Assembly: GCA_025057645.1 (NCBI GenBank)
Contig: JANXBJ010000007.1
Span: 46,664 to 110,663, forward strand
Source of the DNA: Anaerolineales bacterium
Lineage (GTDB): Bacteria; Chloroflexota; Anaerolineae; Anaerolineales; UBA4823
Direction: 5' to 3'
DNA: 64,000 nucleotides
Part shown: piece after piece, positions 2,803 through 56,831 of the stretch
Numbering within the stretch: the first letter of the stretch is position 1
Layout: each line of letters begins with the position of its first letter
Made by a program: the position numbers and the translations under genes
The notes under the pieces: generated by a model
Databases searched by the model: none
Told to the model about the DNA's origin: nothing
Seen by the model: only the letters and a program-made list of their open reading frames with translations

Positions 2803-2829
2803 ATTTCCTGACGCCACCCGGAGGCTTCA

Positions 2830-8603: not shown

Positions 8604-8632
8604 AACTCAATCTTGTGCAAAGGAGAAACTCT

Positions 8633-29549: not shown

Positions 29550-29567
29550 ACACAACCCTTCGACAAA

Positions 29568-29604
29568 AGTCAGGTGTTCCCTTGCTTACAGGGAACACCT
29601 GACT
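29568..29604 (+). promoter_or_regulatory. Intercistronic 15-bp perfect stem-loop after the binding-protein gene
   Basis: agtcaggtgttccct / agggaacacctgact with the 7-nt loop tgcttac. It is followed by ctcttcc (weak U tract). Confidence 0.6.
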
Positions 29605-29647
29605 CTCTTCCCTAATTACAAGAGAATACGTTGTCCTCGGAGACCAA

Positions 29648-40794: not shown

Positions 40795-42717
40795 CTAATT
40801 CTCCTTCATATAGTCTAAGAGTTCGAGCTGCTCAACCGCTTGACGAGAAGGTATGCCCTGCTCATCCCAGCCCATGCGACGGTAGTATACGCCCAGCCAG
40901 TAGCGCATTTCCTCCGGGGTTAGAGCTCGGTTGGCGATCGGACCTTCTGAGAGCTTATAAAAAGCGCGGGCACTCAAGCGATCATCCTGAGCAGTAAAGC
41001 CTTCCCGCAACAAGTAGAGACGGCCCAGTGTGATCGCCCGAAGGCCGATGCGATTGATTTCATCTAGGGTGACATCCCACCCAGAAGCAGCGCTGAGGGC
41101 TTCCACCATATGTTGGTACAAATAAGGGTAGAAATGGCAGATCACTGCGCAGTCATAAAAGTTCTTGAAAGCGGTCTCATAGTAAAAAGCCTCGATCTTG
41201 AGTTCCGAAATCCCCCAAAGAGGCATCGGAACCGGAAGACCAACTTCCTTCAAGCGTGAGCAAATATCGCCCTCTTCAGCCGTGGCAAAGCTGTCATTAT
41301 AGTTATGCATGTGATCTGCCCCAGTGGCAGAGAGGGCATATCCCATGGCCATCGTTTGTTTCAGACGCGGATCGTGCATGGGCAACTCTTGCCCTCGACC
41401 GGTTGCTAACCACTCATGTGCCCTACCTCCAAGCCGATCCGCCAGTCTCTGGCTTCCCTCGGCCATCCAATCGCCTGGGCCCTCTCGATGAGCAATCTGA
41501 TGGATAGCCCTAATCAAGGACTCGCCATCCCCAAAGCGGGGTGCTATCTCCCGCCATTCGAGCGGCAATGCGCCCTGCTCAAGGGCTTCCATAGCAAAAG
41601 CAATGGTGCCGCCAGTCGAAATGCTATCCAATCCATAGGCGTTGCACAGCTCATTCGCCTTAGCGATGACCACCGGATCGGAAATATCACAAAGAGGACC
41701 CAGCGAGGCAATCGATTCGTATTCCAACCCGCCGTAGCGGGTATCGATTGGGGTTTCTTCGTCCTCGTATCCGACGACCAACTTGCAACGGACCGGGCAC
41801 TTGTTACAGGTATCTCGGTCTCTCACCAAGAGTCGAAAGAGCTGTTCTGGCTCTAATTGGTCAGCTCCGCTCAAAAGACCTCGAGTATAGTTTCGGATCG
41901 CCGTGGCGCCAGTAAGCACATTCCCCAACGCCGAGCCAGCCGTGCCATATTGGATCGCCCAAGCCATATCAGTCTTGTAGTGCACATTAATCCATTTCTG
42001 GACCGTCTGCATAAGGCTTTTGTTCTCCAATCCTACAGGGAGCGAGCCGCGCACAGCGACAGCCTTGAGATTTTTGCTCCCCATAACGGCACCGATCCCC
42101 GACCGCCCCGCTGCGCGGCTCACATCGTGCATCACGCTAGCATAGCGCACAAGATTCTCCCCGGCCGGCCCAATACAAGCCACACGCAGCTTCTCATCAC
42201 CTACTGCCTCTCGGAGCGCATCCTGCGTATCGGCGGTGGTTTTGCCCCAAAGGTGTTTGGCCGAGTGGAGCTCTACTTCCCGGTCGCGAATCAATAGATA
42301 GACGGGTTCTGCAGCCCTACCGTGAATCACCACCGCGTCATACCCAGCGCGCTTTAGCTCGCTCCCCCACCACCCTCCGGCCTCGCTCGAGGCCAACGCT
42401 CCGGTGAGCGGAGATTTAGCGCCGATGGCATGTCTCCCCGTTCCGGGGAGCACCGTCCCGCTCAGGACTCCGGCAGCAAAGATGAGCAAATTCTGCGGGC
42501 CTAGGGGATCAATTCTTGGGGGAGTTTGCGTCAGCAGATAGTGCAAAATAAAATTTCTGCCCCCCACAAAACGGCGATAAAATGCCTCGGGTGGAGATTC
42601 CACCCAACAACGGGGGGTGGTAAGATCCACATGCAACACCAAACCCGTATAAGCACTCTGCCCGTTTAGAAACTCCGCTCTTGGCAAGGGTAACGTATCA
42701 GCCTTGTAGACCAGCAT
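40795..42717 (-). CDS. Aldehyde:ferredoxin oxidoreductase family (tungstopterin/4Fe-4S)
   Basis: 640 aa. The N-terminal AOR_N-like region and the CNKCPVRC (CxxCxxxC) cluster motif are typical of AOR-family enzymes. Confidence 0.85.
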   Translation of the reverse strand: MLVYKADTLPLPRAEFLNGQSAYTGLVLHVDLTTPRCWVESPPEAFYRRFVGGRNFILHYLLTQTPPRIDPLGPQNLLIFAAGVLSGTVLPGTGRHAIGAKSPLTGALASSEAGGWWGSELKRAGYDAVVIHGRAAEPVYLLIRDREVELHSAKHLWGKTTADTQDALREAVGDEKLRVACIGPAGENLVRYASVMHDVSRAAGRSGIGAVMGSKNLKAVAVRGSLPVGLENKSLMQTVQKWINVHYKTDMAWAIQYGTAGSALGNVLTGATAIRNYTRGLLSGADQLEPEQLFRLLVRDRDTCNKCPVRCKLVVGYEDEETPIDTRYGGLEYESIASLGPLCDISDPVVIAKANELCNAYGLDSISTGGTIAFAMEALEQGALPLEWREIAPRFGDGESLIRAIHQIAHREGPGDWMAEGSQRLADRLGGRAHEWLATGRGQELPMHDPRLKQTMAMGYALSATGADHMHNYNDSFATAEEGDICSRLKEVGLPVPMPLWGISELKIEAFYYETAFKNFYDCAVICHFYPYLYQHMVEALSAASGWDVTLDEINRIGLRAITLGRLYLLREGFTAQDDRLSARAFYKLSEGPIANRALTPEEMRYWLGVYYRRMGWDEQGIPSRQAVEQLELLDYMKEN

Positions 42718-42720: not shown

Positions 42721-42984
42721 CTACCCTCCGCTAATTTGTACAACTAGGCGGACCTCGTCGCCTGAGTGCAAAATGTAGGATAAGTCCTGCGTAATGCCGT
42801 TGACAACCGGCGTGAGGGCGTTGGGCAGGCGCACCCCCAATAGCTGCAAAGCTTCGCAGATCGAGATACCGGCAGGGACGGGCACCCGACAAGGAGCCTC
42901 CGCACATCCGGCGGGTTTTGCAGTGAGCAGGGAGTGAAGACGTTTATCTATAATAACGAACGCCTGTCCTTCGCCCATTTGCAT
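42721..42984 (-). CDS. MoaD/ThiS-like ubiquitin-fold protein ending in Gly-Gly
   Basis: 87 aa with C-terminus ...GDEVRLVVQISGG followed directly by TAG. It lies 3 nt upstream of the AOR start. Confidence 0.7.
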   Translation of the reverse strand: MQMGEGQAFVIIDKRLHSLLTAKPAGCAEAPCRVPVPAGISICEALQLLGVRLPNALTPVVNGITQDLSYILHSGDEVRLVVQISGG

Positions 42985-42986: not shown

Positions 42987-43979
42987 CTAAATCCTTCCAC
43001 CCATGGTCAAGGCCATTAAGGCCTTCTGAACATGAAGACGGTTTTCAGCCTCATCGTAAATCACCGATTGAGGTCCATCGACAACCGCATCGGTTGCCTC
43101 ATACCCGCGATCGATCGGCATACAATGCATGTAAATGGCCTGTTTTTTAGCCAAACCCATGCGCCGTTCATCACAGATCCAGTCCTTATGCTGGTCGCAC
43201 ATCGCCTGTACTTCCTTCGGATCCTCAGTGACCATAATCGGCCCCCAAGACTTGGCGTAAACGATGTCAGCGCCTTCACAGGCGGCATCCATCGAATCAA
43301 CGACTTCAAATTTAGTGCCATTCTCTGCAGCGTGGCGTCGAGCTGCCTCCAGACACTTTGGCATCAGCTCAAACCCTTTGGGATGCGCAAGGGTAACGTC
43401 CATCCCGAACCGAGTCATCAACATAATGAGCGCTTGGGGCACCGACAGCGGGCGGACATATTTCGGCGCATAAGTCCACGAGATCACGAACTTTAAACCG
43501 CGCAGGTTGTGGCCGAATTTCTCGCAGATGGTCATCAGATCAGCCATGGACTGACAAGGATGGTCGACATCGTCCTGCATCGAGATTACCGGGATATTCA
43601 CATATTTTGCCAGCTCATACATATAGGCCTGGCCGATATTGGTGCGACAATCGCGCACTGCGATTCCGTGACCGTAACGCTCCAAGACCATCCCAGTGTC
43701 TTTGGCGTTCTCGCCATGGCCTACTTGGGTAGCGCTAGGCGTCAGATAAATTGCATGGCCGCCTAGTTGAGTAATTCCCGACTCGAAGCTGTTGCGTGTA
43801 CGAGTCGACTCCTCAAAGAACAGCATGAATAGAGTCTTCGCCCGTAGAATATGGTCGTGGGGCTCACCACACGCAAAGCGGCGTTTTAGGTCCGCTGCCA
43901 TTTCGAGCATCGAGTTGAGCTCTTCGATACTCCAATCCTCTGTGGTAATGAAATCCTTACCGTAGAGATTCGTGAGCAT
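42987..43979 (-). CDS. YgeW-like carbamoyltransferase
   Basis: ESTRTRNSFE carbamoyl-phosphate motif, HPCQSMADL, PLSVPQALIMLMTRFGMDVTLAHP and YMHCMP. These blocks resemble E. coli YgeW as I recall it, rather than classical OTC/ATC. 330 aa. Confidence 0.75.
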   Translation of the reverse strand: MLTNLYGKDFITTEDWSIEELNSMLEMAADLKRRFACGEPHDHILRAKTLFMLFFEESTRTRNSFESGITQLGGHAIYLTPSATQVGHGENAKDTGMVLERYGHGIAVRDCRTNIGQAYMYELAKYVNIPVISMQDDVDHPCQSMADLMTICEKFGHNLRGLKFVISWTYAPKYVRPLSVPQALIMLMTRFGMDVTLAHPKGFELMPKCLEAARRHAAENGTKFEVVDSMDAACEGADIVYAKSWGPIMVTEDPKEVQAMCDQHKDWICDERRMGLAKKQAIYMHCMPIDRGYEATDAVVDGPQSVIYDEAENRLHVQKALMALTMGGRI

Positions 43980-43984: not shown

Positions 43985-45205
43985 CTAAACCTCCTTTTGA
44001 TCAAAAATTTCGGCGTATACAAAAGGAAACAGAGCATAGAATAGCGCTGCTTCTTTCACTTTACGCAAGTTAACTTGGTCCTCGGGAGTATGCACGTATT
44101 GCTCCTCTTGAGGACCGAAACCCAAAGTGGGGATCCCAGCCCGGCCGGCAGAGTAGGTGCCATCGGTGCTAAAGCGCCAAATCCGAACCGGGGCTGCTCT
44201 TCCCCACAGAAGTTCGTAGGTGCGGCGCCCGGCTTGGACGAGCGGATGGCTTTCTTCGATCGTCCACCCCGGGAAGAAGGCCAAATCGTCTAGGCGCAAG
44301 CCGGTATGAGTGCGCACAGGTTGCACAGGAAGGCTCACTTTCGCTCCAAGTGGAGCGAGGGCTTCCTCATACTGTCTAAACAAGCCTTCGACAGTTTCAC
44401 CGGCCACTAGGCGGCGATCGATGGTGATCTCACACCATTCCGGGACGCTGTTAGGCGTATTGGGACTTCGAATTTGGGTGATTACTTGAGTACCTTGGCC
44501 AAGCAGCGGGTCAGAGGGCAAGTTTTGACCCATGGCCTCGACCCGCTCTATCACAGGGATCATTTTGAGAATAGCATTTTCTCCCTGCTCGGGCACGGAG
44601 GCATGAGCTGCTCTTCCCTTCGTAGTAATGCGAATCTCACATCGCCCGCGATGGCCGATACGGAGGGTGAGATCACTGGCTTCGGCAATGAGCACTGCGT
44701 CTGGCCGCAGTCCATCTCGCTCCACCAGCGAACGAAGCGCAAAACCCTCTGCCTCTTCTTCTAGGGTTGCGCCCATCGCAACCACCGTGCAAGGAGGCCT
44801 CAGATTCAAATGCCCAAGAATAGCCAAACCATAGACGATCGCAGCCACCCCGCCTTTGCAATCGGAGGCACCCAGACCATAAAGCGTCTCCCCCACTACT
44901 TGTCCTTCCAACGGAGGGAACGGATAGCTGCTTTCATCGCTAATTTCATTGGTATCTAGGTGGGCATCGTAAAGCAATAAAGGCCTGCCTTCCCCGATCT
45001 GACCGAGAGCATTGCCTGCTGTATCCATCCAGACTTTCTCGCAACCAATATGTCGCAGCTCTGTAAGGGTGCGCTCAACAGCCTCCGCCTCCTCGCCGGT
45101 ATAGGAACGAATGCGAATCAGGTCAACCAGAAAATTGACCATTTGCGGGTAAAGCTCCTCAGCAGCCCGTCTCAATTCATCCACGTAAGGATAACTACTC
45201 CCCAT
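43985..45205 (-). CDS. M20-family metallohydrolase, YgeY-like
   Basis: AHLDT, the GASDCKGG metal-binding block, the EEEAEG acid pair and IGHRG. 406 aa. It sits next to the YgeW-like gene, as ygeY does in E. coli. Confidence 0.75.
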   Translation of the reverse strand: MGSSYPYVDELRRAAEELYPQMVNFLVDLIRIRSYTGEEAEAVERTLTELRHIGCEKVWMDTAGNALGQIGEGRPLLLYDAHLDTNEISDESSYPFPPLEGQVVGETLYGLGASDCKGGVAAIVYGLAILGHLNLRPPCTVVAMGATLEEEAEGFALRSLVERDGLRPDAVLIAEASDLTLRIGHRGRCEIRITTKGRAAHASVPEQGENAILKMIPVIERVEAMGQNLPSDPLLGQGTQVITQIRSPNTPNSVPEWCEITIDRRLVAGETVEGLFRQYEEALAPLGAKVSLPVQPVRTHTGLRLDDLAFFPGWTIEESHPLVQAGRRTYELLWGRAAPVRIWRFSTDGTYSAGRAGIPTLGFGPQEEQYVHTPEDQVNLRKVKEAALFYALFPFVYAEIFDQKEV

Positions 45206-45208: not shown

Positions 45209-46231
45209 TTAAGGCTCCCAATCGGCAAAGGCATCGACTACCGCTTTGATGTCGTCCATCATAGGGTACAAGATAGGACAGGTCACCCCGGCCTCAATAT
45301 ATTCCTTGACCTTGGCGCGGCATTCTTCAGTTGTCCCGACAGCCATCAGGTTGCGCACCACCTCATCCGGGATCACTGCGCTGGCGCGAATGTAGTCCTC
45401 CTCAGTAGCCGGCCAGCTCATCAAAGCTTGCACCTTTTCGAGCAATTCTTCGCTGACGCCCGAAGCCTTCATGATGTGAGGCTCGGTGGCTAGGTAGTAG
45501 GCCACTAATTTTTTGCCTTCAGCCATCGCTGCTGCCGGGTCTTCATCCGATAAAGAACACACCAACAACTCCGGGCGGTCGATGTCCTCCAACTTACGTC
45601 CGGCTCTTTCGGCACCCGCCTTAACCCGCTCTACTGCGCGACGGATATAGTCGGTTGAGACCACATAATTCAACACCACTCCATCGGCAATTTCACCAGC
45701 TAATTCAAGCATTTGATCTCCAGTAGCCCCAATATAGATGGGAATATCTCTAGGCGAGCGATCTCCAAAGGCCACATCTAAACGCACTCGATCGAGATGA
45801 ACAAACTCACCCTGATAGGTGACCTCTTCCATCGTAAACAATTGTCGTATAGCTTCGACATACTCGCGCATTGCTCTAAGCGGCTTAGTGCGCTTGACCC
45901 CCACGCGACTCGCAATCGGTTCCCACCACGCTCCCAGCCCGAGCATAACGCGGCTGCGCCCGTCCGCTTTTCCGGCCAACTCCCACATCGTGCTCCAAGT
46001 AGCCGCAATCACCGCTGGGTTACGCGTCCAAATCGGCAGCACTCCCGAGCCAATACGCAAGCGCTTCGTGCGCGCCAACAGAGCGCTCATCATGACAACA
46101 CAATCGCGCGCCAAACGGGTATCTGCTTGCCAGATCTCGCTAAATCCCCGTTCTTCCGCATATTGGGCCATTTCGAGTTCATATGAGATGTTATGCTTGT
46201 CCTGAAAATAGAGTGCCATCCGCTGTGCCAT
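45209..46231 (-). CDS. Luciferase-like (LLM) flavin- or F420-dependent oxidoreductase
   Basis: TIM-barrel LLM pattern (FSEIWQADT..., [14 protein letters not shown]). The start is set at ATG 46231, which has a GGAAGGA SD; the GTG at 46246 is the alternative. Confidence 0.75.
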
Positions 46232-46242
46232 ACTTTCCTTCC

Positions 46243-47616
46243 TCACAAATAGAGATTCAGGTCAACGACAGGGTATGCTACCCGTTGACCATATGCACGA
46301 ATTTCCGGTTTATACGTAGCGTCGATGATCACCTTAGTGTGCACGCCACGTTCGTTTGCGGTCGGATCCATCTCATGGCCCTGCGCGCCCTGAATGCGTA
46401 CAACATCTCTCCCCCAGTCCACTCGGTTGGTCAATGCCCAGTGGAGATCAGCCGGATCGTAAATATTGACATCCGGGTCGACAACAATCACCTTGGCGAT
46501 ATTGACATGGGCTGTAAAGGCTGCTAAGGCGACGTTTTTGGGTTCTCCGGGGTTGCTCTTTTCGAGCTGAATAACCGCCAAGAAGCCATTCCCATACGGA
46601 GGGATGTGCAAAGCGCGCACGTTTGGACTCACATGGCGAACAAAGCGCAGCAACAGCGGTTCACGCGGGAGAACGTTCCCGATATAGATATGCTCGTCCC
46701 AACCGGGCACGATCGTCTGATAAATAGGCCGATTGCGAAAACACACGGCGGTCACTTCAAAAACGGGTGAATCCCAAATTTCTCCATAGTAACCGTGAAA
46801 CTCGGCTAAAGGCCCTTCCGGGTGGCGTTTATGAGGAGGCAAATAACCCTCAATGACAATTTCCGCGTGATAGGGGATCAAAAGGTCAACCGTAACCCCC
46901 TTAGTGACCAGCACCCCTTCCCCACGCAGTGCTCCGGCGATGGCTAGCTCGTCTCCCTCGTATCGGGCCGCAGCGGCGATCATAATTGCCGGGTCGAGGC
47001 CGATGGCAACTGCAATGGGCAGCGGCTGATTCTGAGCTTGCTGGTGCTTATAGAACTGCATTACATGCCGCCACTCATTGACATTGAAGCCAAAAGTCCG
47101 CCGATCCAAAACTTGCATCCGATTGTAAGAAAGATTTCCCCGGCCGCTGACAGGGTCTCGGCTCACGGTTACCCCGCCTGTAATGAAGGCGCCTCCGTCA
47201 TATTGCCCGTGGATTGGGATAGGCAAATCGTAGAGATTGATTTGCTCTCCTGTCAATACGTTAGCTTGCCAAGGAGGAGCTTGTTCAGTTACCCTGGGCG
47301 CTATCCCTTGCGCCGGATCCAGAGCTCTGCCCATGCGCGCAGAAAGATCCTCAACTGAACACTCCAAAGCCAGTGCAGCCAAGCTCGGATTGACCAGTGC
47401 GTTCGTAAAAACGCCCCAAGGGTACAACTGCCCTTGCTGTGAGGGCGGACTGTCTCGTTTGATTTTCTCAAAGAAAATTGCATTGCCAAGGCGACGCGCC
47501 ACTGTTGCGGCGAGGTTCGCCAGTTCGTAATCCAGGTCGACATCTTTCCGGATGTGCAAGAGCCTCTGATTTTGTTCCAAGGTCTCAAGATAGCTTCGTA
47601 GATCGTATATTCCCAT
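46243..47616 (-). CDS. UbiD-family (prFMN-dependent) decarboxylase
   Basis: The start is trimmed to ATG 47616 ([33 protein letters not shown]...), a typical UbiD N-terminus. About 457 aa. Confidence 0.8.
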
Positions 47617-47648
47617 TGTTCTCGACCTCACACCTGAACATCTTGCGT

Positions 47649-48959
47649 TCAGTCCTCTAGACCGGCCTTCTGACGCAGCCACTTGAGCAACGCCGAGCCC
47701 TCTTTGATTAGGGTCTCCTCGTCAATGGTGAGGATTTTTCCGTCTCGGAGCACCCAGTCTCCTTCGATAAGCAAGCTTTCGACATTGCTGGCGCGTGCCG
47801 AAAGCACCAGTGCCGAGTCCAGATCATGAACAGGCGCTGTCCAGACCGTATCTAGGCGAAGAATAGCCAGATCGGCCGCCTCACCGCGCCTAAGACCGGG
47901 TTTCCCCCAGGCCACCTCCAATGCTAGACGAGGAGGAATCAAACTCGGTTTACAGTTAGCCGCCCGAGCCAGACAAAGCGCAAACTTCATAGTTTCAAAG
48001 CAATCCTGAACATCGTTGGAGGCCGGCCCGTCAGTCCCCAAACGCACCCGAATTCCCCGCTCGATAAAGTCGCCTAGCGGGGCTATCCCTGAACCTAGCA
48101 CCGCATTGCTAACCGGACAATGCACTACAAGCGCTTTTCGTTCGGCCAACAACTGAAGCTCAGGCTCTTGAACCCAAACCCCGTGGACAATTTGGATGTG
48201 CTCACCTAATATCCCCAAACTCTCAAGCCATTCGACCGGATGCTTCCGGTATTCATCCCAGGTGAGCTTTACTTCCTCTTGGGTTTCGCTAACATGGATA
48301 TGCGTAAAGGCTCCATACTGCAGCGCAAGCTGATGGGTGGCTTGGAGGGTCTCGGCAGAACAACGCCAGGGCGCCAACGGCCCGTTGGCAAACTTGACCC
48401 GCTGGTTCGCCTTGTTGTTGCTCAGCCATCGCTCGAGCTCTTCCATAACAGCCTTCGGGTTCTCGGCCCCGCTCCCCCGATCGGACCAAGCGCGGGCAAT
48501 CCAAACCCTCAAGCCACTCTGTTGCGCCGCTTTATAGACCTTTTCAGTAAAGGAGACATCGTGAGTGATCTTTTGGTGATCGACAACCAGTCCCGCTCCG
48601 CTACGAATGTTCTCCGCCAGCCCGAGCAGGGCAGCTACCTCGAGCACCTCCGGACTGAAGGCCTGTTGGAGCGGCCAAATGGCCTCTCTAAGCCAGCGCA
48701 GCAAAGGGCGATCCCCGACAAGCCCTCGCAAGAAGGTCTGGGAAAGATGCGTATGTCCGTTGATCCAGACAGGCGTAACTGCTCGGCTAGAGAGGTCAAG
48801 CACCTCAGCTCCATCCACTCTCTGCGGGGACAATGGGGAAGGGGAAATCTCCTCAATCACCCCTCCCTCGATCAGGAGGAAGGCTTCCTTCAGCCAGCCG
48901 GATGGCTCCATAGCAGGCTCAACGGCGATGGTAGCATGGATCAGGTATAGCTTTTCCAT
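47649..48959 (-). CDS. COG0402-type amidohydrolase (deaminase/chlorohydrolase family)
   Basis: The start is trimmed to ATG 48959. INGHTHLSQTFLRGLVGDRPLLRWL, HVSE and GTDGPASND motifs. It is a paralogue of 36948-38330. Confidence 0.8.
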   Translation of the reverse strand: MEKLYLIHATIAVEPAMEPSGWLKEAFLLIEGGVIEEISPSPLSPQRVDGAEVLDLSSRAVTPVWINGHTHLSQTFLRGLVGDRPLLRWLREAIWPLQQAFSPEVLEVAALLGLAENIRSGAGLVVDHQKITHDVSFTEKVYKAAQQSGLRVWIARAWSDRGSGAENPKAVMEELERWLSNNKANQRVKFANGPLAPWRCSAETLQATHQLALQYGAFTHIHVSETQEEVKLTWDEYRKHPVEWLESLGILGEHIQIVHGVWVQEPELQLLAERKALVVHCPVSNAVLGSGIAPLGDFIERGIRVRLGTDGPASNDVQDCFETMKFALCLARAANCKPSLIPPRLALEVAWGKPGLRRGEAADLAILRLDTVWTAPVHDLDSALVLSARASNVESLLIEGDWVLRDGKILTIDEETLIKEGSALLKWLRQKAGLED

Positions 48960-48987: not shown

Positions 48988-51762
48988 TTATTCGAGACGT
49001 AATGGGAATCGAGTGAGGCGCCGGCCTGTGGCTTGGAAAACTGCATTGGCAATGGCAGGAGCAGTTGCCACGATAGGAGGCTCGGCCAAACCCTTTGCGC
49101 CAAAAGGCCCCTCGGGCTGAATGGTCGATAATAAATGCACCTCGATCTCTGGCACTTGGGTCGCCCGCGGAATCGTGTATTTGTTCAACTCCGGCTTCTC
49201 AGGATACCCATTCTTATACGTGAAGCCCTCGGTCAGGGCATAGCCCAGTCCCTGGACAATTGCACCGATCATTTGCCCCTTTGCGCCCTCGGGGTAGACG
49301 ATCATCCCCGCATCATGAGCTGCCCAAATATGGAGCACACGGATCTCCTTGGCCTTGAGGTTAACTTCTACTTCCGCCACCTGGGCACCATAGCAATAGG
49401 TGAAGTAGGGCTCCCCTTGTCCTTTTTCAAAATCCCAGTGGATTTGAGGGATTTGCCAATAACCCTCAACTGCCAGTTGGAAGCCCATCTTCAGGGCATG
49501 GGCTACAACCTCATCAAAAGTGGCTATTTCCTCGGTTCGAGGGTTCAAGAAGCGCTCGTCCAGACGTTGAACTTGCTCAGGCAAACAACCTAAGAGGTCA
49601 GCTGCTGCCAGATTGAGCAGATTGACCAATTTTTGGGCAGCAACTCGAACTGCATTGCCTCCCACGATGGTCGCACGCGAAGCCACAGTTGGGCCGGGCT
49701 CCGCTGCAGTCTGGGTATCTGGGCGCGGCATTCGGATGCGTTCTGGGCTAACTTGTAAAACCTCCGCTGCCAGCAAGGTAAAAACTGTGCGACTCCCTTG
49801 ACCATAGTCGGTCAAGCCGTGATTGATCACAATCGTGTGATCGGATTCGATGTGAATGCGCGCTGAAGCATAGTCCTTACCTTCGCCTCCTAAACCTGTG
49901 CCATGGAAGTAGCAAGCGACCCCGATCCCTCGCCGAATAAATTGGTCGGAGGGTTGCCGAGCATACTCCGCTCGCTTCGCATTCCAATCGCTCCTCTCCC
50001 GAACCCACCGGAGGCACTCCGCAATGTGGACGGGATGTCGAAGAATGTTTCCCGTAAACGCAGGCTTGCCTTGAACGATTAGGTTGCGCAAACGATACTC
50101 GATCGGATCCTCCCCGAAGCGATGGGCAAGATCGTCAATGAGAATTTCGCTCGCAGCACAAGCTTGCGGATTGCCAAATCCTCGAAAAGCCCCCGCATAG
50201 CCGTTGTTTGTATAGACGACATAGGTGTCTACTTTTGCTGCTTCATAGAGGTAACAACCTGCAACGTGCATTGTCGCCCGCCAAGAGGAGAGCGGGGTCA
50301 TCGAGGCATAAGCCCCACTATCCGCCCAAATTTGGGCTTGGGCCGCTCTCAGCCTCCCTTTCGCGTCCGTCCCCACTTTGAGATGGATCTCCATTCCTTC
50401 CCGCTTGTAGGAAGCCAACAGTGACTCTTTGCGGCTCAAAACGATACGCACAGGACGGCCGGTAATCAGAGCCAGCTTAGCGGCCTGAGCTGAAAGCTGA
50501 TACCCAATGTCGTCCTTCCCTCCAAACGAGCCTCCAACTGGGGGTTGAATCACCCGCACCAAGTTTGAGGGCAATCCCAGCACAGCAGCTGTATTCTCCC
50601 GGTTGATAAAGGGACTTTGATCGTTGGCATAAATTGTCACACCGCCGTCGGGCTCCGGGATAGCCAGTGCTCCCTCCGTCTCAAGATAAACGTGTTCCTG
50701 AGGGGCAAATTCAAAGCGGTGTTCAACAACATGAGCGCATTCACTCAGGATCGCCTCGGCATCTCCATTGCGCACGATATGGGTAACGCAAAGATTACTT
50801 CCCTTGCCGGCATTCTCTGGGATGATGACCGTCTCGGGTTTGAGCGCCTGGTGAACATCGGTCACCACTTCCAAAGGCTCAAACTCTACCTCGATTGCCT
50901 CAACCCCTTTTTTTGCAGCTTCCTCGGTTTCAGCAGCTACAGCCGCAATCGGATCCCCCACATAGCGCACCTTTTGATAAGCCAAGATGAAGGCATCTCG
51001 CACCGGCCACCCAAATTGGCCATTATCCACAAAGTCCTTGCTCGTGATCACCGCCTTTACCCCTTCAACTTCCAGAGCTGGTGCGGGGTTAAGGCGCACG
51101 ATGCGTGCATGGGGAAGGGGGCTTAAGAGCAGACGTGCATAGAGCATTCCCGGAACTCGTAAGTCCCCTACATAGCGAGCCCTTCCGGTGACCTTCTCGT
51201 AGCCATCAACGGGTTTGGCATCCAATTGATGGATATACCGATAGGGGGATTGGGGGCTCGGTTCGATGACCGGGGAGGGAGGTAGCCAGGGCAGGTTCTG
51301 GCGACGGTAGGCGGTCTCCTCGATGGCATCCACAATCTGCTGATAGCCCGTACAGCGACACAAAACCGAATTGATAGCCTTGCGGATCTCGTGACGAGTA
51401 GGCAAAGGCTTCTCGCGCAAGAGAGCCTCACCAGCCATGATCATTGCCGGAATACAGTAGCCGCACTGAACCGCACCGTGACGCACGAAAGCTTCTTGCA
51501 AGTCGGTCAAGCGCCCATCCTCAGCCAAACCTTCAATAGTCGTCACGGATGCGCCGTCAACTTCAACCGCCTTCGTCTGGCAGGACTTAACCAGTTGGTT
51601 ATCGACCCAAACCGAACACGTGCCGCAGGTGCCACTGCCACATCCCTCTTTGGTGCCGGTGAGACCGAACGTGTTTCGCAAAAGATGAAGCAAAGTGGTC
51701 TCGGGCTTGACCTCGCATTTCACTGGCTTTCCGTTTAGGGTAAACCCAACCGAGGGACTCAT
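48988..51762 (-). CDS. Fused [2Fe-2S] plus molybdopterin hydroxylase (XdhD / Mop-type xanthine dehydrogenase family)
   Basis: N-terminal CGSGTCGTC and CGYC...CRCTGY double [2Fe-2S] motifs, followed by an approximately 760-aa molybdopterin-binding portion. 924 aa. No FAD-subunit gene is adjacent. Confidence 0.85.
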   Translation of the reverse strand: MSPSVGFTLNGKPVKCEVKPETTLLHLLRNTFGLTGTKEGCGSGTCGTCSVWVDNQLVKSCQTKAVEVDGASVTTIEGLAEDGRLTDLQEAFVRHGAVQCGYCIPAMIMAGEALLREKPLPTRHEIRKAINSVLCRCTGYQQIVDAIEETAYRRQNLPWLPPSPVIEPSPQSPYRYIHQLDAKPVDGYEKVTGRARYVGDLRVPGMLYARLLLSPLPHARIVRLNPAPALEVEGVKAVITSKDFVDNGQFGWPVRDAFILAYQKVRYVGDPIAAVAAETEEAAKKGVEAIEVEFEPLEVVTDVHQALKPETVIIPENAGKGSNLCVTHIVRNGDAEAILSECAHVVEHRFEFAPQEHVYLETEGALAIPEPDGGVTIYANDQSPFINRENTAAVLGLPSNLVRVIQPPVGGSFGGKDDIGYQLSAQAAKLALITGRPVRIVLSRKESLLASYKREGMEIHLKVGTDAKGRLRAAQAQIWADSGAYASMTPLSSWRATMHVAGCYLYEAAKVDTYVVYTNNGYAGAFRGFGNPQACAASEILIDDLAHRFGEDPIEYRLRNLIVQGKPAFTGNILRHPVHIAECLRWVRERSDWNAKRAEYARQPSDQFIRRGIGVACYFHGTGLGGEGKDYASARIHIESDHTIVINHGLTDYGQGSRTVFTLLAAEVLQVSPERIRMPRPDTQTAAEPGPTVASRATIVGGNAVRVAAQKLVNLLNLAAADLLGCLPEQVQRLDERFLNPRTEEIATFDEVVAHALKMGFQLAVEGYWQIPQIHWDFEKGQGEPYFTYCYGAQVAEVEVNLKAKEIRVLHIWAAHDAGMIVYPEGAKGQMIGAIVQGLGYALTEGFTYKNGYPEKPELNKYTIPRATQVPEIEVHLLSTIQPEGPFGAKGLAEPPIVATAPAIANAVFQATGRRLTRFPLRLE

Positions 51763-51793: not shown

Positions 51794-52534
51794 TTAGACT
51801 GCACTTCGGCCACCATCGATAAAGTACACCGCACCAGTAGCAAACTCATTTTCAATGAGAAAAGCAGCCAGCTGAGCCACATCGCTCGGCGAACCGATGC
51901 GCTTTAGCAGTGAGTTCTCAATCGCCCAACGTTTCTTCTCCTCGGTTGCGTTAGGGGGCAGCAGAACTGTGCCGGGTGCAATAGCATTGACCCGCACGTG
52001 AGGGGCAAGCTCTGCTGCCATTACTTTCGTCAGGGCAACCAAGCCCGCTTTGGAGGCGGAGTGATGAGCATACTCTCGCCATACTTGGAACGCCGAGAGA
52101 TCAGTGATATTCAAGATCACCCCTCTCTGCGCCTTGAGCATGTGAGGCGCAACGGCCTGAGAGCAGAGAAAGGGGCCCTTGAGGTTAACCTCTAACGCCA
52201 AGTCCCAGTCTTCTTCCGAGATCTCAAGAAACGGCGCCCGCAGCCATACCGAAGCGTTGTTGATCAAAACGTCAATCCTCGAAAAATGTTCGACACACTT
52301 TTGGATTGTTGTCCGCACCTGCGCTGCATCCCGCACCTCCAAGGGAAGAGCCAAGCAGCGAACTCCACACTGCTCGATTTCCGCTTTTGTCTCCTGCCAG
52401 GGCTCTTCGGCGAGATAATATGTGAAGGCAATGTGGGCTCCCTTTCTCGCCAAGTACAAAGCCACCTCGCGGCCAACTCGCGTAGCAGCCCCGGTGATCA
52501 AAACAACCGCCTCTTTGATCTCCATCTTCGCCAC
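51794..52534 (-). CDS. SDR oxidoreductase, FolM/PTR1-like (second copy)
   Basis: ITGAATRVGRE loop, NITD, HSASK in place of YxxxK, and VRVNAIAPG. It is a paralogue of 26702-27454. Confidence 0.65.
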   Translation of the reverse strand: MAKMEIKEAVVLITGAATRVGREVALYLARKGAHIAFTYYLAEEPWQETKAEIEQCGVRCLALPLEVRDAAQVRTTIQKCVEHFSRIDVLINNASVWLRAPFLEISEEDWDLALEVNLKGPFLCSQAVAPHMLKAQRGVILNITDLSAFQVWREYAHHSASKAGLVALTKVMAAELAPHVRVNAIAPGTVLLPPNATEEKKRWAIENSLLKRIGSPSDVAQLAAFLIENEFATGAVYFIDGGRSAV

Positions 52535-52575
52535 TTCCTCGTGCAGACGTTTTAGTTTTTCTCCCTAGTGCGTAC

Positions 52576-53925
52576 TCACCAGGCAAGCACAAACGGATTC
52601 TCGACCAACTGTTTGATACGCTGCAAGAAACGAGCAGCCGGAGCGCCATCTACCAAGCGATGGTCAAAAGAGAGACTCAAAGTAACTTGCTCGCGCAAAA
52701 CAAGCTGGCCCTCGCGAGCGACAGGCTTAGGGCGGATCTTGCCCACCCCGAGGATCGCCGTCTGAGGAGGATTGAGCAAAGGAGTAAAGCCATCAATATC
52801 ATAAGCACCCAAGTTAGTGATGGTAAATGTCCCTCCTTCAAGGTCCTCGGGCGTGCTACGATTGTTCAGGGCACGCTCAACCTTTTCAAGAAGCTCATAG
52901 TGGATTTGGCGCAAGCTTTTTCGCTGCACTTGGTGAATGACGGGGACGGTCAACCCCCGTTCGGTGTCAACTGCCAGGGCGATATTAATATCCTCAGGGT
53001 AAAGGATTTTATCCCCTTCGAGGTATGCGTTTAGCGCAGGATGTTCGACTAGGGCGATGGCACAGAGTTTGATCAACAAGGCATTATAGGAGACTTTCTG
53101 CCCCTCATTGCTCAAGACCTGATTGATCTGCTGCCGCGCCTGAACTAGATTGACCGCATCGACCTCGGTAAAGAGCGTGACTTGGGGGCGCTCCCGCCAA
53201 CTCTGAGCCAAGCGCTCAGCAATGACCGCTCGAAAACCACTCAGCGGCTGCTGTCTGATCGGTTTCGCCTCCGCCACAGCAACCCGGCGTTCGGCCAAAG
53301 CTCTCTCAACATCCTGACGTGTCACCCGCCCTTGGAGGCCGCTTCCCTTAACCAACGAAAGGTCGAGCCCGGCCTCTGCAGCCACCCGCTCAGCTACAGG
53401 CGTTGCGCGTCTCTTCAAGGTCGTGGCCTCCCGTTGCACGTCCCTTGCGATTATCATCCCTCGAATGCCGCTCCCCCTAACACTGCTTAGTTCCACCCCA
53501 AGCTCACGCGCCAGCCGCCGCGCTTTCGGGGTTGCAGCAATTCTTCCCCGCTCAACCGAAAACTTCGATTCGACAGATAGAGGAACTCCCTCACTGCGCT
53601 TTCCGTCTTCGCCCTCCGCAACCACAGCAATGCCCTGTGCTGGCGCGGCCGAAGGAGGGCTGGCCGCAATCGGCTTCGGAGAAAGTTCCCCAATCACGGT
53701 GAGCACAGGAAGGGTAACGCCTGTCGGTGCAAGGATATGCAAATAACCCGAGGCCGGGGATTCGATGTCGACCACCGACTTCTCGTTCTCCAGAGCAAAA
53801 AGTGGCTCCCCCTTGTTGACCCAATCGCCTTCCTTGAAGTACCACTCCACTATTCTCGCTTCAACCATTGTCAATCCTAAACGTGGGATGACAATCGGGT
53901 AAGCCTCCTCGGTTGAGTTAGTCAT
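52576..53925 (-). CDS. Dihydrolipoamide acyltransferase (E2) of a 2-oxoacid dehydrogenase complex
   Basis: The start is trimmed to ATG 53925. Lipoyl domain (LENEKSVVDIESPASG), a peripheral-subunit-binding domain, and the catalytic SLSFDHRLVDG motif. Confidence 0.85.
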   Translation of the reverse strand: MTNSTEEAYPIVIPRLGLTMVEARIVEWYFKEGDWVNKGEPLFALENEKSVVDIESPASGYLHILAPTGVTLPVLTVIGELSPKPIAASPPSAAPAQGIAVVAEGEDGKRSEGVPLSVESKFSVERGRIAATPKARRLARELGVELSSVRGSGIRGMIIARDVQREATTLKRRATPVAERVAAEAGLDLSLVKGSGLQGRVTRQDVERALAERRVAVAEAKPIRQQPLSGFRAVIAERLAQSWRERPQVTLFTEVDAVNLVQARQQINQVLSNEGQKVSYNALLIKLCAIALVEHPALNAYLEGDKILYPEDINIALAVDTERGLTVPVIHQVQRKSLRQIHYELLEKVERALNNRSTPEDLEGGTFTITNLGAYDIDGFTPLLNPPQTAILGVGKIRPKPVAREGQLVLREQVTLSLSFDHRLVDGAPAARFLQRIKQLVENPFVLAW

Positions 53926-54748
53926 CACTCGCCGCTCCCTTCGTGGAATAGTATTCGGAAAAAAGCTGTTGTACCTTTGCCCAAGCTTCTGCCTCAGTGG
54001 TAGAGGGGTAAAATTCCATCCCAACGAGCCCATCAAACCCAAGCTCGGCCAATTTACGAACTAAGTTGGGGAAGTTGATCTCCCCCGTTCCCGGCTCCTG
54101 CCGGGTTGGAACATCGCCGATGTGAAAAGTCGGGTATAGGCCGTAGCACTTCTCCAAATAGTAAGTCAGGTTTCCTCCACTACGCTGCTGATGGTAGCAA
54201 TCGAAAGCAAGGCGAAATTGGGGATGGTCCATGCGACGCACCCAATCCGCAGCCAATTCCAAGTCATGGACAAGCAAGTCTCCCTGGATGTGGTACTGGT
54301 TGAGCCCTTCCACCCAAATTTGAACCGAGGTTTGTTCAACCAATTTTAGAATCCGCTCCGTCTGCTCAAGAAGATTGGCATATTGCTCTGCGGCGCTAAT
54401 ATTGCGCGACAAGCGGCGCGTCCACTCCTTCCCATTGACGATCTCAACCTGATTCGAAAAGATAAATAAGTGGGGAATCTCGTATCGGCTGGCCATTTCC
54501 AAGCTTTCTTGCCAACTGCGGTAAGTCAGCTCATTGTCGGCTGGATCGGCCAACGAGCCCATCTGATCGTCAAAGGTCGAGTTAATGATCGCTCCACAGG
54601 CCTTGCATTCCCTGTATAGCTGTTCCATGGGGACTTGACGCCAACACCAAACATCGAAGCGACGGATCCCTAACTCAACAAAAGGGTGAACCCGCTCAAC
54701 GAAGGGACGGTCACGAAACCAGAAATCCAGATAGCCGCTAAACTCCAT
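53918..54748 (-). CDS. Xylose-isomerase-like TIM-barrel protein (hydroxypyruvate isomerase-like)
   Basis: 276 aa. The pattern of conserved acidic/His residues (…WVEGLN…, HIGD…) resembles Hyi/AP-endonuclease-2 fold proteins. It overlaps the E2 start by 8 nt. Confidence 0.6.
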   Translation of the reverse strand: MEFSGYLDFWFRDRPFVERVHPFVELGIRRFDVWCWRQVPMEQLYRECKACGAIINSTFDDQMGSLADPADNELTYRSWQESLEMASRYEIPHLFIFSNQVEIVNGKEWTRRLSRNISAAEQYANLLEQTERILKLVEQTSVQIWVEGLNQYHIQGDLLVHDLELAADWVRRMDHPQFRLAFDCYHQQRSGGNLTYYLEKCYGLYPTFHIGDVPTRQEPGTGEINFPNLVRKLAELGFDGLVGMEFYPSTTEAEAWAKVQQLFSEYYSTKGAASDD

Positions 54749-54793
54749 CTCGTGCTCCTTAGTGAAGTATCCGTATGCCCTGTGCCGTTTTTC

Positions 54794-55795
54794 TTACAGG
54801 GGTTCAGCGACCTTCACCCCTCTCATCAACTCATGGGCTGCTCTCAAGATATCCTCCTCCTGAGGCAGAACAGTTTGTTCAAGCGAAGGACTATAAGGAA
54901 TTGGCACATTCTTGGCTGCCACACGAAGGATCGGCGCGTCAAGATACTCCACCGCTTGCTCGGCTAGGATTGCCGCAATTTCGGCCCCGGGACCCGACCT
55001 TCGATGAGCTTCGTGGACGATCATGACCCTGCCTGTCTTGGCTACCGATTCAAGAAGAGTCGGCACATCCAGAGGCACCAGCGTCCTGGGATCGATCACT
55101 TCTGCTTGAATCCCCTCCTGGGCAAGCTTTTCCGCCGCCTGAAGGGCTTTGGGCACCATCCCACCGATGGCGATGATGGTTAAGTCATCGCCACTGCGAC
55201 GGATCGCCGCTTCGCCGAAGGGAACAGTGAAATTTTCATCTTCCGGCACCGGACCGCGCAAGGCATATAACATCTTATGCTCAAAGAACAACACTGGATC
55301 CCTGCCGCGCAAGGCGGTTTTCAACAGTCCTTTGGCATCTGCAGGTGTTGCGGGCACTGCGATCTTGAGGCCAGGCACATTCATAAACCAAGACTCGGCG
55401 CTTTGGGAATGCTGCGCTGCAGCGGAACCCGGTGCGCCGGTCGTTACTCGAATGACTAAGGGGACATCCGCTTTCCCGCCGCTCATATAACGCGCCTTCG
55501 CCACCTGATTGACAATCTGATCCCCGGCGCACATCAAGAAGTCGGCAAACATAATCTCAACAATGGGGCGCATTCCGCACAAAGCCGCTCCCAGCCCCAT
55601 CCCAACAATTGCGGTTTCCGAGATTGCGGTATCGCGCACGCGCTCTTCACCAAACTCTTGCAGCATTCCCGCAGAGACTCCCCAAACTCCGCCGAACACT
55701 CCTACATCCTCACCCATCAAGAACACCCGCGGATCGCGGCGCATCTCCTCGCTCATCGCTTCACGAATGGCTTCAGAGTAGGTGATCTCCCTCAT
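54794..55795 (-). CDS. 2-oxoacid dehydrogenase E1 component, beta subunit
   Basis: MREITYSEAIREAM... and VFLMGEDVG are typical of PdhB/AcoB-type transketolase-like beta subunits. 333 aa. Confidence 0.9.
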   Translation of the reverse strand: MREITYSEAIREAMSEEMRRDPRVFLMGEDVGVFGGVWGVSAGMLQEFGEERVRDTAISETAIVGMGLGAALCGMRPIVEIMFADFLMCAGDQIVNQVAKARYMSGGKADVPLVIRVTTGAPGSAAAQHSQSAESWFMNVPGLKIAVPATPADAKGLLKTALRGRDPVLFFEHKMLYALRGPVPEDENFTVPFGEAAIRRSGDDLTIIAIGGMVPKALQAAEKLAQEGIQAEVIDPRTLVPLDVPTLLESVAKTGRVMIVHEAHRRSGPGAEIAAILAEQAVEYLDAPILRVAAKNVPIPYSPSLEQTVLPQEEDILRAAHELMRGVKVAEPL

Positions 55796-55807
55796 AGTGC
55801 CTTTCTC

Positions 55808-56812
55808 CTAGAAAACTAAACCGTTGTGTATGTCAGCGTAGACGCCATAAAGGGCATCCTCCGACTGTGGTTGCGAAGCCTGCTTTGCGAACAAAACTGC
55901 CTCGTCAAGTTGAGCCATGATCTCGCCTTGAATCTCCTCCAAAGTCGACTCATCGACAAGTTGTTCCTGAAGTAACCGAGCACGAAAGCGCGGGATGGGG
56001 TCGCGCCGTTTCCACTCCTCGACCTCTTGAGGAGTTCGATATACTTGAGGATCCCCTTCGTAATGGCCACGCAAGCGATAGGTCTTGGCCTCGATGAGCG
56101 TTGGCCCTTCACCATTTCTGGCTCGCTCCGCCGCCTGTCGCACCGCCTCATACACCGCCACAACATCGTTACCATCGACAATCACGCCGGGGAACCCATA
56201 AGCCACGGCGCGGTCGGCTAAGTTCTGGATAGCTGTCGAGCGATGCATTGCTGTGCCTTCTCCATAGAGGTTGTTCTCACAGAAGAAAATCACCGGCAAT
56301 TTCCAGACCGCAGACTGATTGGCTGCTTCGTGAAAGGCCCCTTCATTTGCGGCGCCATCTCCGAAGAAAGCTAAGGCCACTCTCCTTTCCCCGCGCATCT
56401 TAAAAGCTAATGCAGCCCCGGCAGCGATGGGAATCCCGCCACCAACAATGCCGTTCGCCCCCAGAATCCCCAAATTGAAGTCGCTTATATGGAGAGAACC
56501 CCCTCGTCCGAGACAGTACCCGGGCTGCCTGCCCGCCAACTCGGCCATCATATATCGCGCTTCTCCCCCTTTGGCGATCAAGTGACCGTGCCCGCGATGG
56601 GTGCTGGTGATCACATCATCCGGGTTCAAGGCAAGGCAAGCCCCCACTGCCGTGGCCTCCTGACCCACGCAGGAATGGATAAAACCAGGGATAAGCCCCC
56701 GATGGCGTTCTTCGATAGCCCGTAGCTCAAACTCGCGAATTAGAGTCATCCTGCGAAACATCTCCAGCAGCAAAGAAGTTGGGTAACTCGAGAGACTCTT
56801 TGTTGCATCCAT
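55808..56812 (-). CDS. 2-oxoacid dehydrogenase E1 component, alpha subunit (TPP-binding)
   Basis: The start is trimmed to ATG 56812, which has a GGAGGG SD. The TPP motif is GDGAANEGAFHEAANQSAVWKLPVIFFCENN. Confidence 0.9.
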   Translation of the reverse strand: MDATKSLSSYPTSLLLEMFRRMTLIREFELRAIEERHRGLIPGFIHSCVGQEATAVGACLALNPDDVITSTHRGHGHLIAKGGEARYMMAELAGRQPGYCLGRGGSLHISDFNLGILGANGIVGGGIPIAAGAALAFKMRGERRVALAFFGDGAANEGAFHEAANQSAVWKLPVIFFCENNLYGEGTAMHRSTAIQNLADRAVAYGFPGVIVDGNDVVAVYEAVRQAAERARNGEGPTLIEAKTYRLRGHYEGDPQVYRTPQEVEEWKRRDPIPRFRARLLQEQLVDESTLEEIQGEIMAQLDEAVLFAKQASQPQSEDALYGVYADIHNGLVF

Positions 56813-56831
56813 GGTTCCCTCCACACACAAG

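Follow-up and report, generated by a model that had tools for sequence, protein, structure and literature searches.

A UbiD-family decarboxylase paired with a putative dearomatising reductase in a probable purine/ureide gene cluster of Chloroflexota

We analysed a 64-kb stretch of an Anaerolineales genome (hereafter the window; coordinates are window-based and "-" denotes the minus strand) that carries a gene for a UbiD-family decarboxylase dependent on prenylated flavin mononucleotide (prFMN) (46243..47616, -). The gene encodes an intact member of an apparently Chloroflexota-restricted subfamily and is a fixed part of the purine/ureide cluster of these bacteria. Comparison of related loci showed that UbiD is genetically coupled to whichever dearomatising reductase a lineage uses, in the window a luciferase-like (LLM) oxidoreductase encoded by the next gene. 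The array in which the pair lies is best regarded as a Chloroflexota variant of the anaerobic purine/ureide (urate) degradation cluster. Neither UbiD nor any decarboxylase is mentioned in the work of Li et al. 2025 (PMC12507026) or Liu et al. (bioRxiv 10.1101/2025.04.24.650524) on this kind of pathway, and the conserved, tight pairing of UbiD with a dearomatising reductase is new with respect to both. From protein families and gene order, we put at about even the chances that UbiD decarboxylates an N-heteroaromatic carboxylate and hands the product to the reductase within a Chloroflexota purine/ureide island.

The UbiD protein and its subfamily

The 457-aa protein matched PF20695, PF01977 and PF20696 above their gathering scores, which gives the three-domain architecture of the family, and scored 302 bits on TIGR00148 (cutoff 244.85). 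Full-length phmmer matches were obtained to 40 solved UbiD chains; the closest was HmfF (6H6V, E 2e-73), followed by AnInD, an indole-3-carboxylate decarboxylase. Residues were mapped by counting through the alignment, which reproduced the published AnInD positions R155, D169 and E266 (PMC8988006). By way of AnInD R155 and E266, R166 is the catalytic Arg and E272 the catalytic Glu, and E267 is the acid that opens the E(D)-R-E triad. Judged by the Fdc1 ligands N168, H191 and E233, the metal/phosphate ligand positions are occupied by N161, H184 and E223. Among 25 aligned family members N161, R166, E223, E267 and E272 did not vary and H184 hardly did, and the same five were also invariant in outgroups down to 36% identity. 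The integrity of the active-site and prFMN-binding residues was a point on which an earlier interpretation of this DNA, made from its letters only (the sequence-only reading), depended; all six are intact, and UbiD apparently works as a prFMN-dependent decarboxylase, one whose subfamily is specific to the lineage.

An exhaustive HMMER scan of 1.8 billion representatives showed that this subfamily is sharply bounded: sequences at 59-79% identity form one 50% cluster (705 bits), and the next full-length relatives lie at 401 bits (46%) and 316 bits (42%). At the AnInD D169 position the family has an Asn, within an invariant FNVNEWRH motif (N180-E181-W182) that reads N-Q-W in the 46% outgroup and is absent from HmfF-like sequences. 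AnInD (indole-3-carboxylate) and HudA/PA0254 (pyrrole-2-carboxylate) resemble UbiD in prFMN chemistry on electron-rich heteroaromatic carbons, at identities to the window protein of ~30% or less; in them a polar residue, AnInD D169 or HudA N318, reads the ring N-H, and the window UbiD has the Asn of its invariant NEW motif.

Many family members are labelled "furandicarboxylate decarboxylase 1" by JGI, and HmfF is the closest solved relative. The likeness to HmfF covers the three-domain fold, the metal/prFMN ligands, the Glu-Arg-Glu triad and the equivalents of H296 and R304 (H309 and R318). The position of R331, in the CRYH motif that HmfF-like outgroups retain, is deleted or Gly in the family. 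Payne et al. 2019 reportedly assign roles in HmfF to H296, R304 and R331. Because R331 and its CRYH motif are lost and the family has an FNVNEWRH motif of its own, the label 2,5-furandicarboxylate decarboxylase is probably over-transferred. Identity to HmfF is ~40% or lower, no furoyl-CoA pathway genes were seen nearby, and the genomic context is one of ureides and purines. On motif and gene context we rejected 2,5-furandicarboxylate as the substrate and give the label next to no credence.

Pairing of UbiD with a reductase

UbiD is the middle one of three minus-strand coding sequences packed between a YgeY-family M20 hydrolase and a molybdenum hydroxylase of the xanthine dehydrogenase (XDH) family, with gaps of 28, 32, 11 and 3 nt across the junctions XDH, amidohydrolase, UbiD, LLM and M20. 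The XDH-family gene stops at 48988; the amidohydrolase runs from an ATG at 48959 to a stop at 47649, UbiD from an ATG at 47616 (GAGG upstream) to 46243, and LLM from an ATG at 46231 (GAGGAAGG upstream) to 45209, ahead of the M20 ATG at 45205. GAGG-type ribosome-binding sites precede the ATG starts of both UbiD and LLM. NCBI gene calls on a matching contig of a metagenome-assembled genome (MAG; GCA_025057515.1, JANWXT010000214.1) give 457, 340 and 406 aa for UbiD, LLM and M20; these lengths equal those from the starts read here and so back them independently. Longer listed open reading frames (ORFs) of the trio overlap because they use upstream GTG/TTG starts. The sequence-only reading had described three packed genes in this place with gaps of 3 to 32 nt, and both that arrangement and its gene identities (UbiD, LLM, amidohydrolase, M20 hydrolase, molybdenum hydroxylase) were borne out, the latter by Pfam and NCBIfam searches. 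Its view that the three had been inserted between ygeY and xdhD was rejected, since gene order varies widely across genomes while the gene set recurs, and the whole array is instead a conserved lineage-specific cluster.

The LLM gene (45209..46231, -) encodes a 340-aa, Mer-like protein matching PF00296 (E 1e-66, 225 bits). Its top 15 NCBIfam matches were all F420-dependent LLM families, and FMN monooxygenases reached at most 50 bits. The best model was Mer, on which it scored below both cutoffs (167 vs 276 and 161 vs 349 bits), so it does not qualify as a Mer equivalog. Its best PDB matches were F420-dependent methylene-tetrahydromethanopterin (H4MPT) reductases (1Z69, E 3.5e-39), the top ones being Mer and FGD with F420. 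LLM is on this basis predicted to be an F420-class oxidoreductase. Mer is its best relative by structure and profile and has the same F420-class TIM barrel; LLM differs in falling below the Mer cutoffs and in being encoded among bacterial catabolic genes and not in a C1 pathway. The carbon that receives hydride from Mer is attached to ring nitrogens, and by analogy such a transfer would suit a heterocycle in which an amidine- or imine-type carbon is to be reduced. Production of F420 is documented for Chloroflexi (PMC8498797).

One genome per species was scanned, which recovered UbiD relatives in 289 species genomes, and the related loci were compared by tblastn with the window proteins, unassigned ORFs being clustered and annotated. 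All but one of the best 80 loci are labelled Chloroflexota (Anaerolineae, Promineifilaceae, Caldilineales, Ardenticatenaceae). The exception, L014 (SKXY01000041.1, 3.5 kb), carries the label Wenzhouxiangella (Gammaproteobacteria), but identity to the window proteins is 68% for UbiD and 87% for LLM, and it is probably a mis-binned Chloroflexota contig.

Genes directly downstream of UbiD were counted in 75 loci with enough flank, and co-occurrence in the fetched flank of 81 loci. Results showed that LLM directly follows UbiD in 45 of the 75, at ~82% identity, and is better conserved than UbiD itself. In six, a DHO_dh plus 4Fe-4S protein takes this place; its best match is PreA/dihydropyrimidine dehydrogenase, and it has the architecture and Pfam marker of UacX/PydA. 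UacX is the characterised yanthine reductase of C. difficile, and PF01180 is the marker used for it by Li et al. (PMC12507026). The two reductases were mutually exclusive (LLM alone in 49 loci, the UacX-like protein alone in 8, both in 0), which is a non-homologous reductase replacement beside a constant UbiD. A divergent gene of the aldehyde:ferredoxin oxidoreductase (AOR) family directly follows UbiD in 3/75 loci. Such genes, 30-34% identical to the window AOR, were seen after UbiD at L060:12103, L067:3715, L075:11462 and L081:11493, in loci having neither LLM nor a UacX-like gene, and their products might serve as redox partners of a third type.

The pairing extends beyond the subfamily. 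In the nearest outgroup, P0121 (46%), UbiD overlaps a Mer-like LLM, with an SsnA-type hydrolase, a creatininase-family hydrolase and a Bmp ABC transporter alongside. The SsnA-type hydrolase of this outgroup (locus L086) is 49% identical to the window's own (56832-58172). The creatininase-family hydrolase in this minimal cluster of SsnA-type hydrolase, UbiD and LLM (L086:199-993) might take the place of the hydantoinase without being homologous to it, acting on a cyclic amide with a five-membered ring. More distant relatives, at 36-42% identity, are found in loci that look like other N-heteroaromatic acid pathways. In the outgroup L089 a deaminase-type amidohydrolase overlaps the UbiD start, and a lumazine-binding-domain protein is present; in L087, L090 and L092-L094 the neighbours are XDH-family hydroxylases, PucR, DHO_dh/Fe-S proteins and meta-cleavage-type genes. 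Those from Bacillota and Actinomycetota (~37%) include paired UbiD genes (L093:8536-11356; L094:10001-11374 and 14315-15718), probably in anaerobic N-heteroaromatic (di)carboxylate pathways.

Besides the reductase, UbiD keeps recurrent wider company. In related loci it stands with HyuA-like, SsnA-type, COG0402, YgeW-like, YgeY, XDH, short-chain dehydrogenase/reductase (SDR), pyruvate dehydrogenase (PDH)-like E1/E2, AOR and helix-turn-helix (HTH)-cupin genes, in varying orders. In the 44 loci whose flanks reach 8 kb or more to either side of UbiD, the neighbours counted were SDR (30), LLM (25), E1 beta (25), E2 (24), HTH-cupin (23), hydantoinase (22), E1 alpha (22), SsnA-type hydrolase (21), carbamoyltransferase (17), XDH (17), a deaminase-type amidohydrolase like that beside the window UbiD (16), AOR (15) and YgeY (13). 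The recurrence of this company in ~80 other species-level genomes is far from chance. The sequence-only reading had raised the question of whether UbiD accompanies YgeY and XdhD homologues elsewhere; the association proved systematic and took in YgeW-, HyuA- and SsnA-like genes as well, and the notion that UbiD orthologues never neighbour heterocycle-catabolic genes is contradicted by ~80 genomes with the same gene set.

An HTH-cupin homologue lies directly upstream of UbiD, in divergent orientation, in 23 related loci, and in many genomes UbiD and LLM form a two-gene unit divergent from this regulator. Directly after LLM, a 5'-nucleotidase (Metallophos + 5_nucleotid_C) was found in 12 loci (e.g. 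L003:12556-14337), which links the module to nucleotide scavenging. A URO-D/MtaA-like, methyltransferase-type gene is directly upstream of UbiD in 15 related loci (e.g. L005:8814-9992) and absent from the window; L001 (8811-9977, 18376-19455, 21093-21386) has a second copy of it near a B12-binding protein. This gene suggests a corrinoid-dependent demethylation branch, e.g. for methylated purines.

The prFMN synthase UbiX was sought with PF02441, and there was no match among the scanned window ORFs of at least 90 aa, a few transporter ORFs being left unscanned; for the scanned ORFs this agrees with the sequence-only reading, which had seen no UbiX gene in the window. In eight related genomes UbiX (NF004685, 241 bits, cutoff 188) lies no more than ~10 kb away from the UbiD orthologue. 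A 64-kb window cannot show that a genome has no ubiX, and these eight UbiX-bearing loci point the other way.

The gene array in the window

UbiD and LLM belong to an array of 21 co-directional genes spanning ~26 kb (36948-62837, -), in which every gap is at most 103 nt. From 62837 downwards it starts with a HyuA-type hydantoinase, a three-gene sugar ABC transporter and an SsnA-type hydrolase, continues with PDH-like E1 alpha and E1 beta, an isomerase-like TIM barrel, E2, SDR and XDH, then with the deaminase-type amidohydrolase, UbiD, LLM, YgeY and a YgeW-like carbamoyltransferase, and ends with an 87-aa ORF, AOR, GH31 and a third COG0402 amidohydrolase. An HTH-cupin regulator (62853..63407, -; PF01381 + PF07883) lies just upstream.

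The three COG0402 amidohydrolases (AmhA, AmhB and AmhC) are of two types. AmhB, adjoining UbiD (47649..48959, -; 436 aa; PF01979, E 2e-44), had been taken for a ring-opening enzyme in the sequence-only reading. Its best NCBIfam matches were models of 5'-deoxyadenosine deaminase, chlorohydrolase and 8-oxoguanine deaminase, all below cutoff; it scored 155 bits against the 455 required by the SsnA model and so falls outside that family, and its PDB relatives are 8-oxoguanine and methylthioadenosine/S-adenosylhomocysteine deaminases. It has the motifs HTHLSQTFLRG (HxHxxQxxxRG) and DGPASN (DGxxSN), which are common to the deaminase-type paralogues and absent in EcSsnA. On its motifs and PDB relatives, AmhB was rejected as the ring opener. 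The candidate ring opener is the SsnA-type paralogue AmhA (56832..58172, -), whose best NCBIfam matches are two SsnA models, although at 250 and 242 bits it stays below their cutoffs of 444 and 455. AmhA is the window's best match to EcSsnA, yet at 25% identity; the two have in common HxHxY...GI, two adjacent Trp residues (WW) and, following the DG motif, a loop that is shortened. AmhC, the last gene of the array (36948..38330, -; PF01979, E 8e-67), has deaminase-type motifs and is 36% identical to AmhB.

Several other gene products resemble known ureide-pathway enzymes. The HyuA-type D-hydantoinase/dihydropyrimidinase (61428..62837, -) scored 480 bits on TIGR02033 (cutoff 393) and is 39% identical to EcHyuA; a second copy (10796-12226, +) reached 517 bits. 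The YgeY-family M20 hydrolase (43985..45205, -) passed the NF009555 equivalog (377 bits, cutoff 321) and is 36% identical to E. coli YgeY over its full length. The carbamoyltransferase (42987..43979, -; PF02729 + PF00185), YgeW-like/OTCase-like, fell below every NCBIfam equivalog cutoff (N-acetylornithine carbamoyltransferase 272 vs 288, YgeW 225 vs 453); it is 36% identical to EcYgeW and ~82% conserved across related loci. The carbamate kinase, the YqeA equivalent (218..1177, +), scored 382 bits on TIGR00746 (cutoff 358) and is 53% identical to EcYqeA.

The XDH-family molybdenum hydroxylase (48988..51762, -; PF00111, PF01799, PF01315, PF02738, PF20256) has fused N-terminal 2Fe-2S domains and no FAD domain. 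It scored 585 vs 830 on the Se-dependent XDH model and 302 vs 1102 on the XdhD-type model, and is 31% identical to EcXdhA and 28% to EcXdhD. Genes for SDR, PDH-like E2, the hydroxypyruvate-isomerase-like TIM barrel, PDH-like E1 beta and E1 alpha (51794..56815, -) recur in UbiD neighbourhoods. The best NCBIfam match of SDR is pteridine reductase, below cutoff (209 vs 288). The tungsten-type AOR (40795..42717, -; PF02730 + PF01314) follows the carbamoyltransferase in many related loci too. Between the two in the window, with 2-3 nt gaps, lies the 87-aa ORF (42721-42984), which has no Pfam or NCBIfam match; L001 has a 95-aa gene at the equivalent position.

Elsewhere in the window are two Bmp-type ABC systems (Bmp/PnrA-type uptake, 1442-6349 and 28410-33420), DeoC, a PfkB kinase and the selenocysteine elongation factor SelB (17143-19068), and the region looks like a selenium-linked nucleoside/purine catabolic island. 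Two pyridoxal phosphate-dependent (PALP) proteins near a Bmp ABC system (6353-7606 and 8600-10099), one threonine-synthase-like and one cysteine-synthase-like, gave no convincing match to YgeX.

Candidate reactions and competing explanations

Li et al. reconstituted a reductive urate pathway, in which XdhD converts urate to 2,8-dioxopurine and YgfK or UacX, together with SsnA, then couples reductive dearomatisation to ring opening (PMC12507026). Their SsnA neighbourhood analysis found in Chloroflexota no YgfK/UacX and a PF00296 enzyme instead, and they already proposed the Chloroflexota F420 LLM as a YgfK/UacX substitute and yanthine reductase (PMC12507026); the "new enzymology" announced in the sequence-only reading was overstated in this respect. 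The 2,8-dioxopurine cluster of E. coli, C. difficile and C. sporogenes consists of XdhD, YgfK/UacX, SsnA, HyuA, YgeW/UacY, YgeY, YgeX and YqeA. YgeY, the HyuA-type enzyme and the YqeA-type carbamate kinase are common to the window above cutoffs; the YgeW-like (36%), SsnA-type (25%) and XDH (28-31%) homologues are below them. In a comparison with the ygeW-xdhD region of E. coli K-12, the window had no YgfK and no convincing YgeX; UacX is absent from it too, and LLM is present instead. UbiD and two deaminase-type COG0402 paralogues are additions, and so are the genes for PDH-like E1/E2, SDR, the isomerase-like protein and AOR, which are an integral part of the array here.

The other known route is the clostridial xanthinase pathway of Rabinowitz, for whose genes Li et al. 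cite Tong et al. 2023 (Cell Chem Biol 30:1104) and which runs from xanthine through 4-ureido- and 4-amino-imidazole-5-carboxylate, 4-aminoimidazole and imidazolone to formiminoglycine (PMC12507026). It is reported from Clostridia and Bacilli and has no reductase step, whereas the present cluster is from Chloroflexota and has a reductase. The genes of Tong and colleagues reportedly include four hydrolases and a prFMN-dependent decarboxylase, which would be a precedent for prFMN chemistry in anaerobic purine breakdown and a further reason to call the "new enzymology" overstated. Hydrolases and a decarboxylase for an imidazole carboxylate would be a likeness between the two systems, which would then have the enzyme family and the logic of the chemistry in common. 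No named purinolytic clostridial relative of UbiD was among the nearest 50%-identity clusters; those beyond the subfamily carry the names of Acetonema longum, Actinomycetota, Bacillota and Burkholderiales MAGs and have different contexts. Full-text literature searches combining prFMN with xanthine or aminoimidazole gave no match.

In the reaction sequence that we consider, xanthine or urate would have its pyrimidine ring opened by hydrolysis, which would yield 4-amino- or 4-ureido-imidazol(on)e-5-carboxylate as the UbiD substrate. UbiD would remove CO2 from this N-heteroaromatic carboxylate, in chemical terms the step reportedly catalysed by the prFMN decarboxylase of the xanthinase pathway, and the product would pass to the dearomatising reductase, here the Mer-like F420-dependent LLM and in other lineages a PydA/UacX-like FMN/Fe-S enzyme. 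The SsnA-type hydrolase and the hydantoinase would next open the ring, and the YgeW-like transferase, YgeY and carbamate kinase would cleave the ureido group, as in the 2,8-dioxopurine pathway; AmhB might deaminate the amino-heterocycle before or after decarboxylation. The order of the reactions, the substrate and the transfer of the UbiD product to the reductase are inferred.

The imidazol(on)e-5-carboxylates are our leading guess for the substrate because they are the sole purine-derived aromatic acids with a classical precedent, because their carboxyl carbon is of the electron-rich imidazole C4/C5 type that UbiD favours, and because the context is one of nucleosides and purines: carbamate kinase, two Bmp ABC systems, DeoC and SelB are all in the window. 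In this setting the substrate class of the sequence-only reading, a heteroaromatic carboxylate of purine or pterin origin, is reasonable. Xanthine-8-carboxylate had come into consideration from the tetraoxypteridine isomerase reaction. It was downgraded: UbiD-type electrophilic substitution prefers imidazole C4/C5 over C2, HudA is inactive on imidazole-2-carboxylate and C2-type carbons are electron-poor (PMC7976604).

Several points weigh against decarboxylation followed by reduction. The 2,8-dioxopurine pathway as characterised contains no heteroaromatic carboxylate and hence no UbiD step, so the presence of UbiD implies different early chemistry or a feeder substrate. The xanthinase route needs no reductase after decarboxylation; the imidazol(on)e route by itself leaves the follow-on reductase unexplained, and the UbiD-reductase coupling is therefore explained by neither known pathway alone. 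Orthology to the 2,8-dioxopurine cluster is partial, given only 25-31% identity for the SsnA-type and XDH proteins and no YgeX. Neither LLM nor a UacX-like gene was present within the fetched flank in 24 of the 81 loci. Weak pteridine hints also exist, namely the best match of SDR, the Mer likeness of LLM and the lumazine-binding-domain protein of L089. A bolder reading, which we consider possible but doubtful, is that the UbiD-reductase module is a third, hybrid anaerobic route for purines (or pteridines), widespread in Chloroflexota. Hydrolysis of the pyrimidine ring would be followed by prFMN-dependent loss of the former C6 as CO2, by F420H2- or Fe-S/FMN-dependent reduction of the imidazol(on)e/pyrazine ring and by hydantoinase-type cleavage.

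Alternatively, LLM or the UacX-like enzyme could simply be the yanthine (or uracil-type) reductase of a reductive pathway that is canonical in other respects, and UbiD and the deaminase could form a feeder branch funnelling in another carboxylated heterocycle, such as pterin-6-carboxylate, lumazine carboxylate (from folate, pterin or methanopterin breakdown) or orotate, which would give uracil. The assignment of LLM to yanthine reduction by Li et al. argues for this (PMC12507026). The DHO_dh-family partner fits a pyrimidine product, and the pteridine reductase match of SDR, the methylene-H4MPT reductase matches of LLM and the arrangement of L089 are in keeping with a pteridine one. Structure 2PAJ, an isoxanthopterin/pterin-6-carboxylate deaminase, is among the COG0402 relatives. 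The pteridine hints are, however, all below-cutoff best matches, the context of Bmp transporters, DeoC and carbamate kinase is nucleoside/purine, and C6 of orotate and of pterin are electron-poor positions. The tightness of UbiD-LLM, often bicistronic even without other adjoining pathway genes, indicates consecutive steps and argues further against a feeder branch, which we regard as rather unlikely.

A different direction of the UbiD reaction was also weighed. UbiD enzymes are reversible, and anaerobic carboxylations by them have been proposed for benzene and naphthalene (PMC8988006); here UbiD might carboxylate a C-H heterocycle (e.g. uracil to orotate, or yanthine at C6), pulled by reduction. 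The dihydroorotate-like intermediate would then be opened by a cyclic amidohydrolase and phosphorolysed by the carbamoyltransferase, with ATP formed via carbamate kinase. The tight gene coupling of decarboxylase and reductase, the DHODH-family alternative partner and the presence of both carbamoyltransferase and carbamate kinase fit such a scheme, but the carbamoyltransferase scored 263-272 bits on ornithine/N-acetylornithine-type models vs 148 on aspartate carbamoyltransferase models, and the SsnA-type plus hydantoinase pair would be left unexplained. We know of no precedent for carboxylation of a pyrimidine or purine and consider this improbable. We are equally sceptical of a service role, in which LLM (or the flavin/Fe-S partner) matures oxidatively or recycles prFMN for UbiD under anoxia. 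Dedicated prFMN maturases do exist, e.g. PhdC, an HpaC-like flavin reductase homologue (PMC13040415); no other gene is linked to UbiD as tightly as that for LLM, down to the 46% outgroup, and LLMs bind flavin or deazaflavin. On the other hand, LLM is in the F420/Mer class, its mutually exclusive replacement is homologous to the established substrate reductases PydA/UacX, and the cluster would otherwise be without a reductase, which the pathway requires.

How purines and urate are degraded anaerobically was worked out only in 2023-2025, and only in Firmicutes and E. coli. In digesters, sediments and sludge the dominant bacteria include Anaerolineae and related Chloroflexota, whose route is therefore of consequence for the turnover of nitrogen and nucleic acids in these habitats. 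The conserved link between a prFMN decarboxylase and a dearomatising reductase suggests either a carboxylated intermediate that has gone unrecognised or a substrate class, likewise unrecognised, that feeds the pathway, and UbiD, UbiX and the F420 LLM are a concrete, clonable and directly testable enzyme set. If the hybrid route is true, its enzymology would be unlike both the xanthinase and the 2,8-dioxopurine pathways, and to our knowledge no Mer-like F420 enzyme coupled to UbiD would have been given a catabolic role before. The UbiD-reductase pair could reveal a third anaerobic route for purines (or pteridines); the UbiD family would gain a substrate class, and Mer-like F420 enzymes a function in catabolism.

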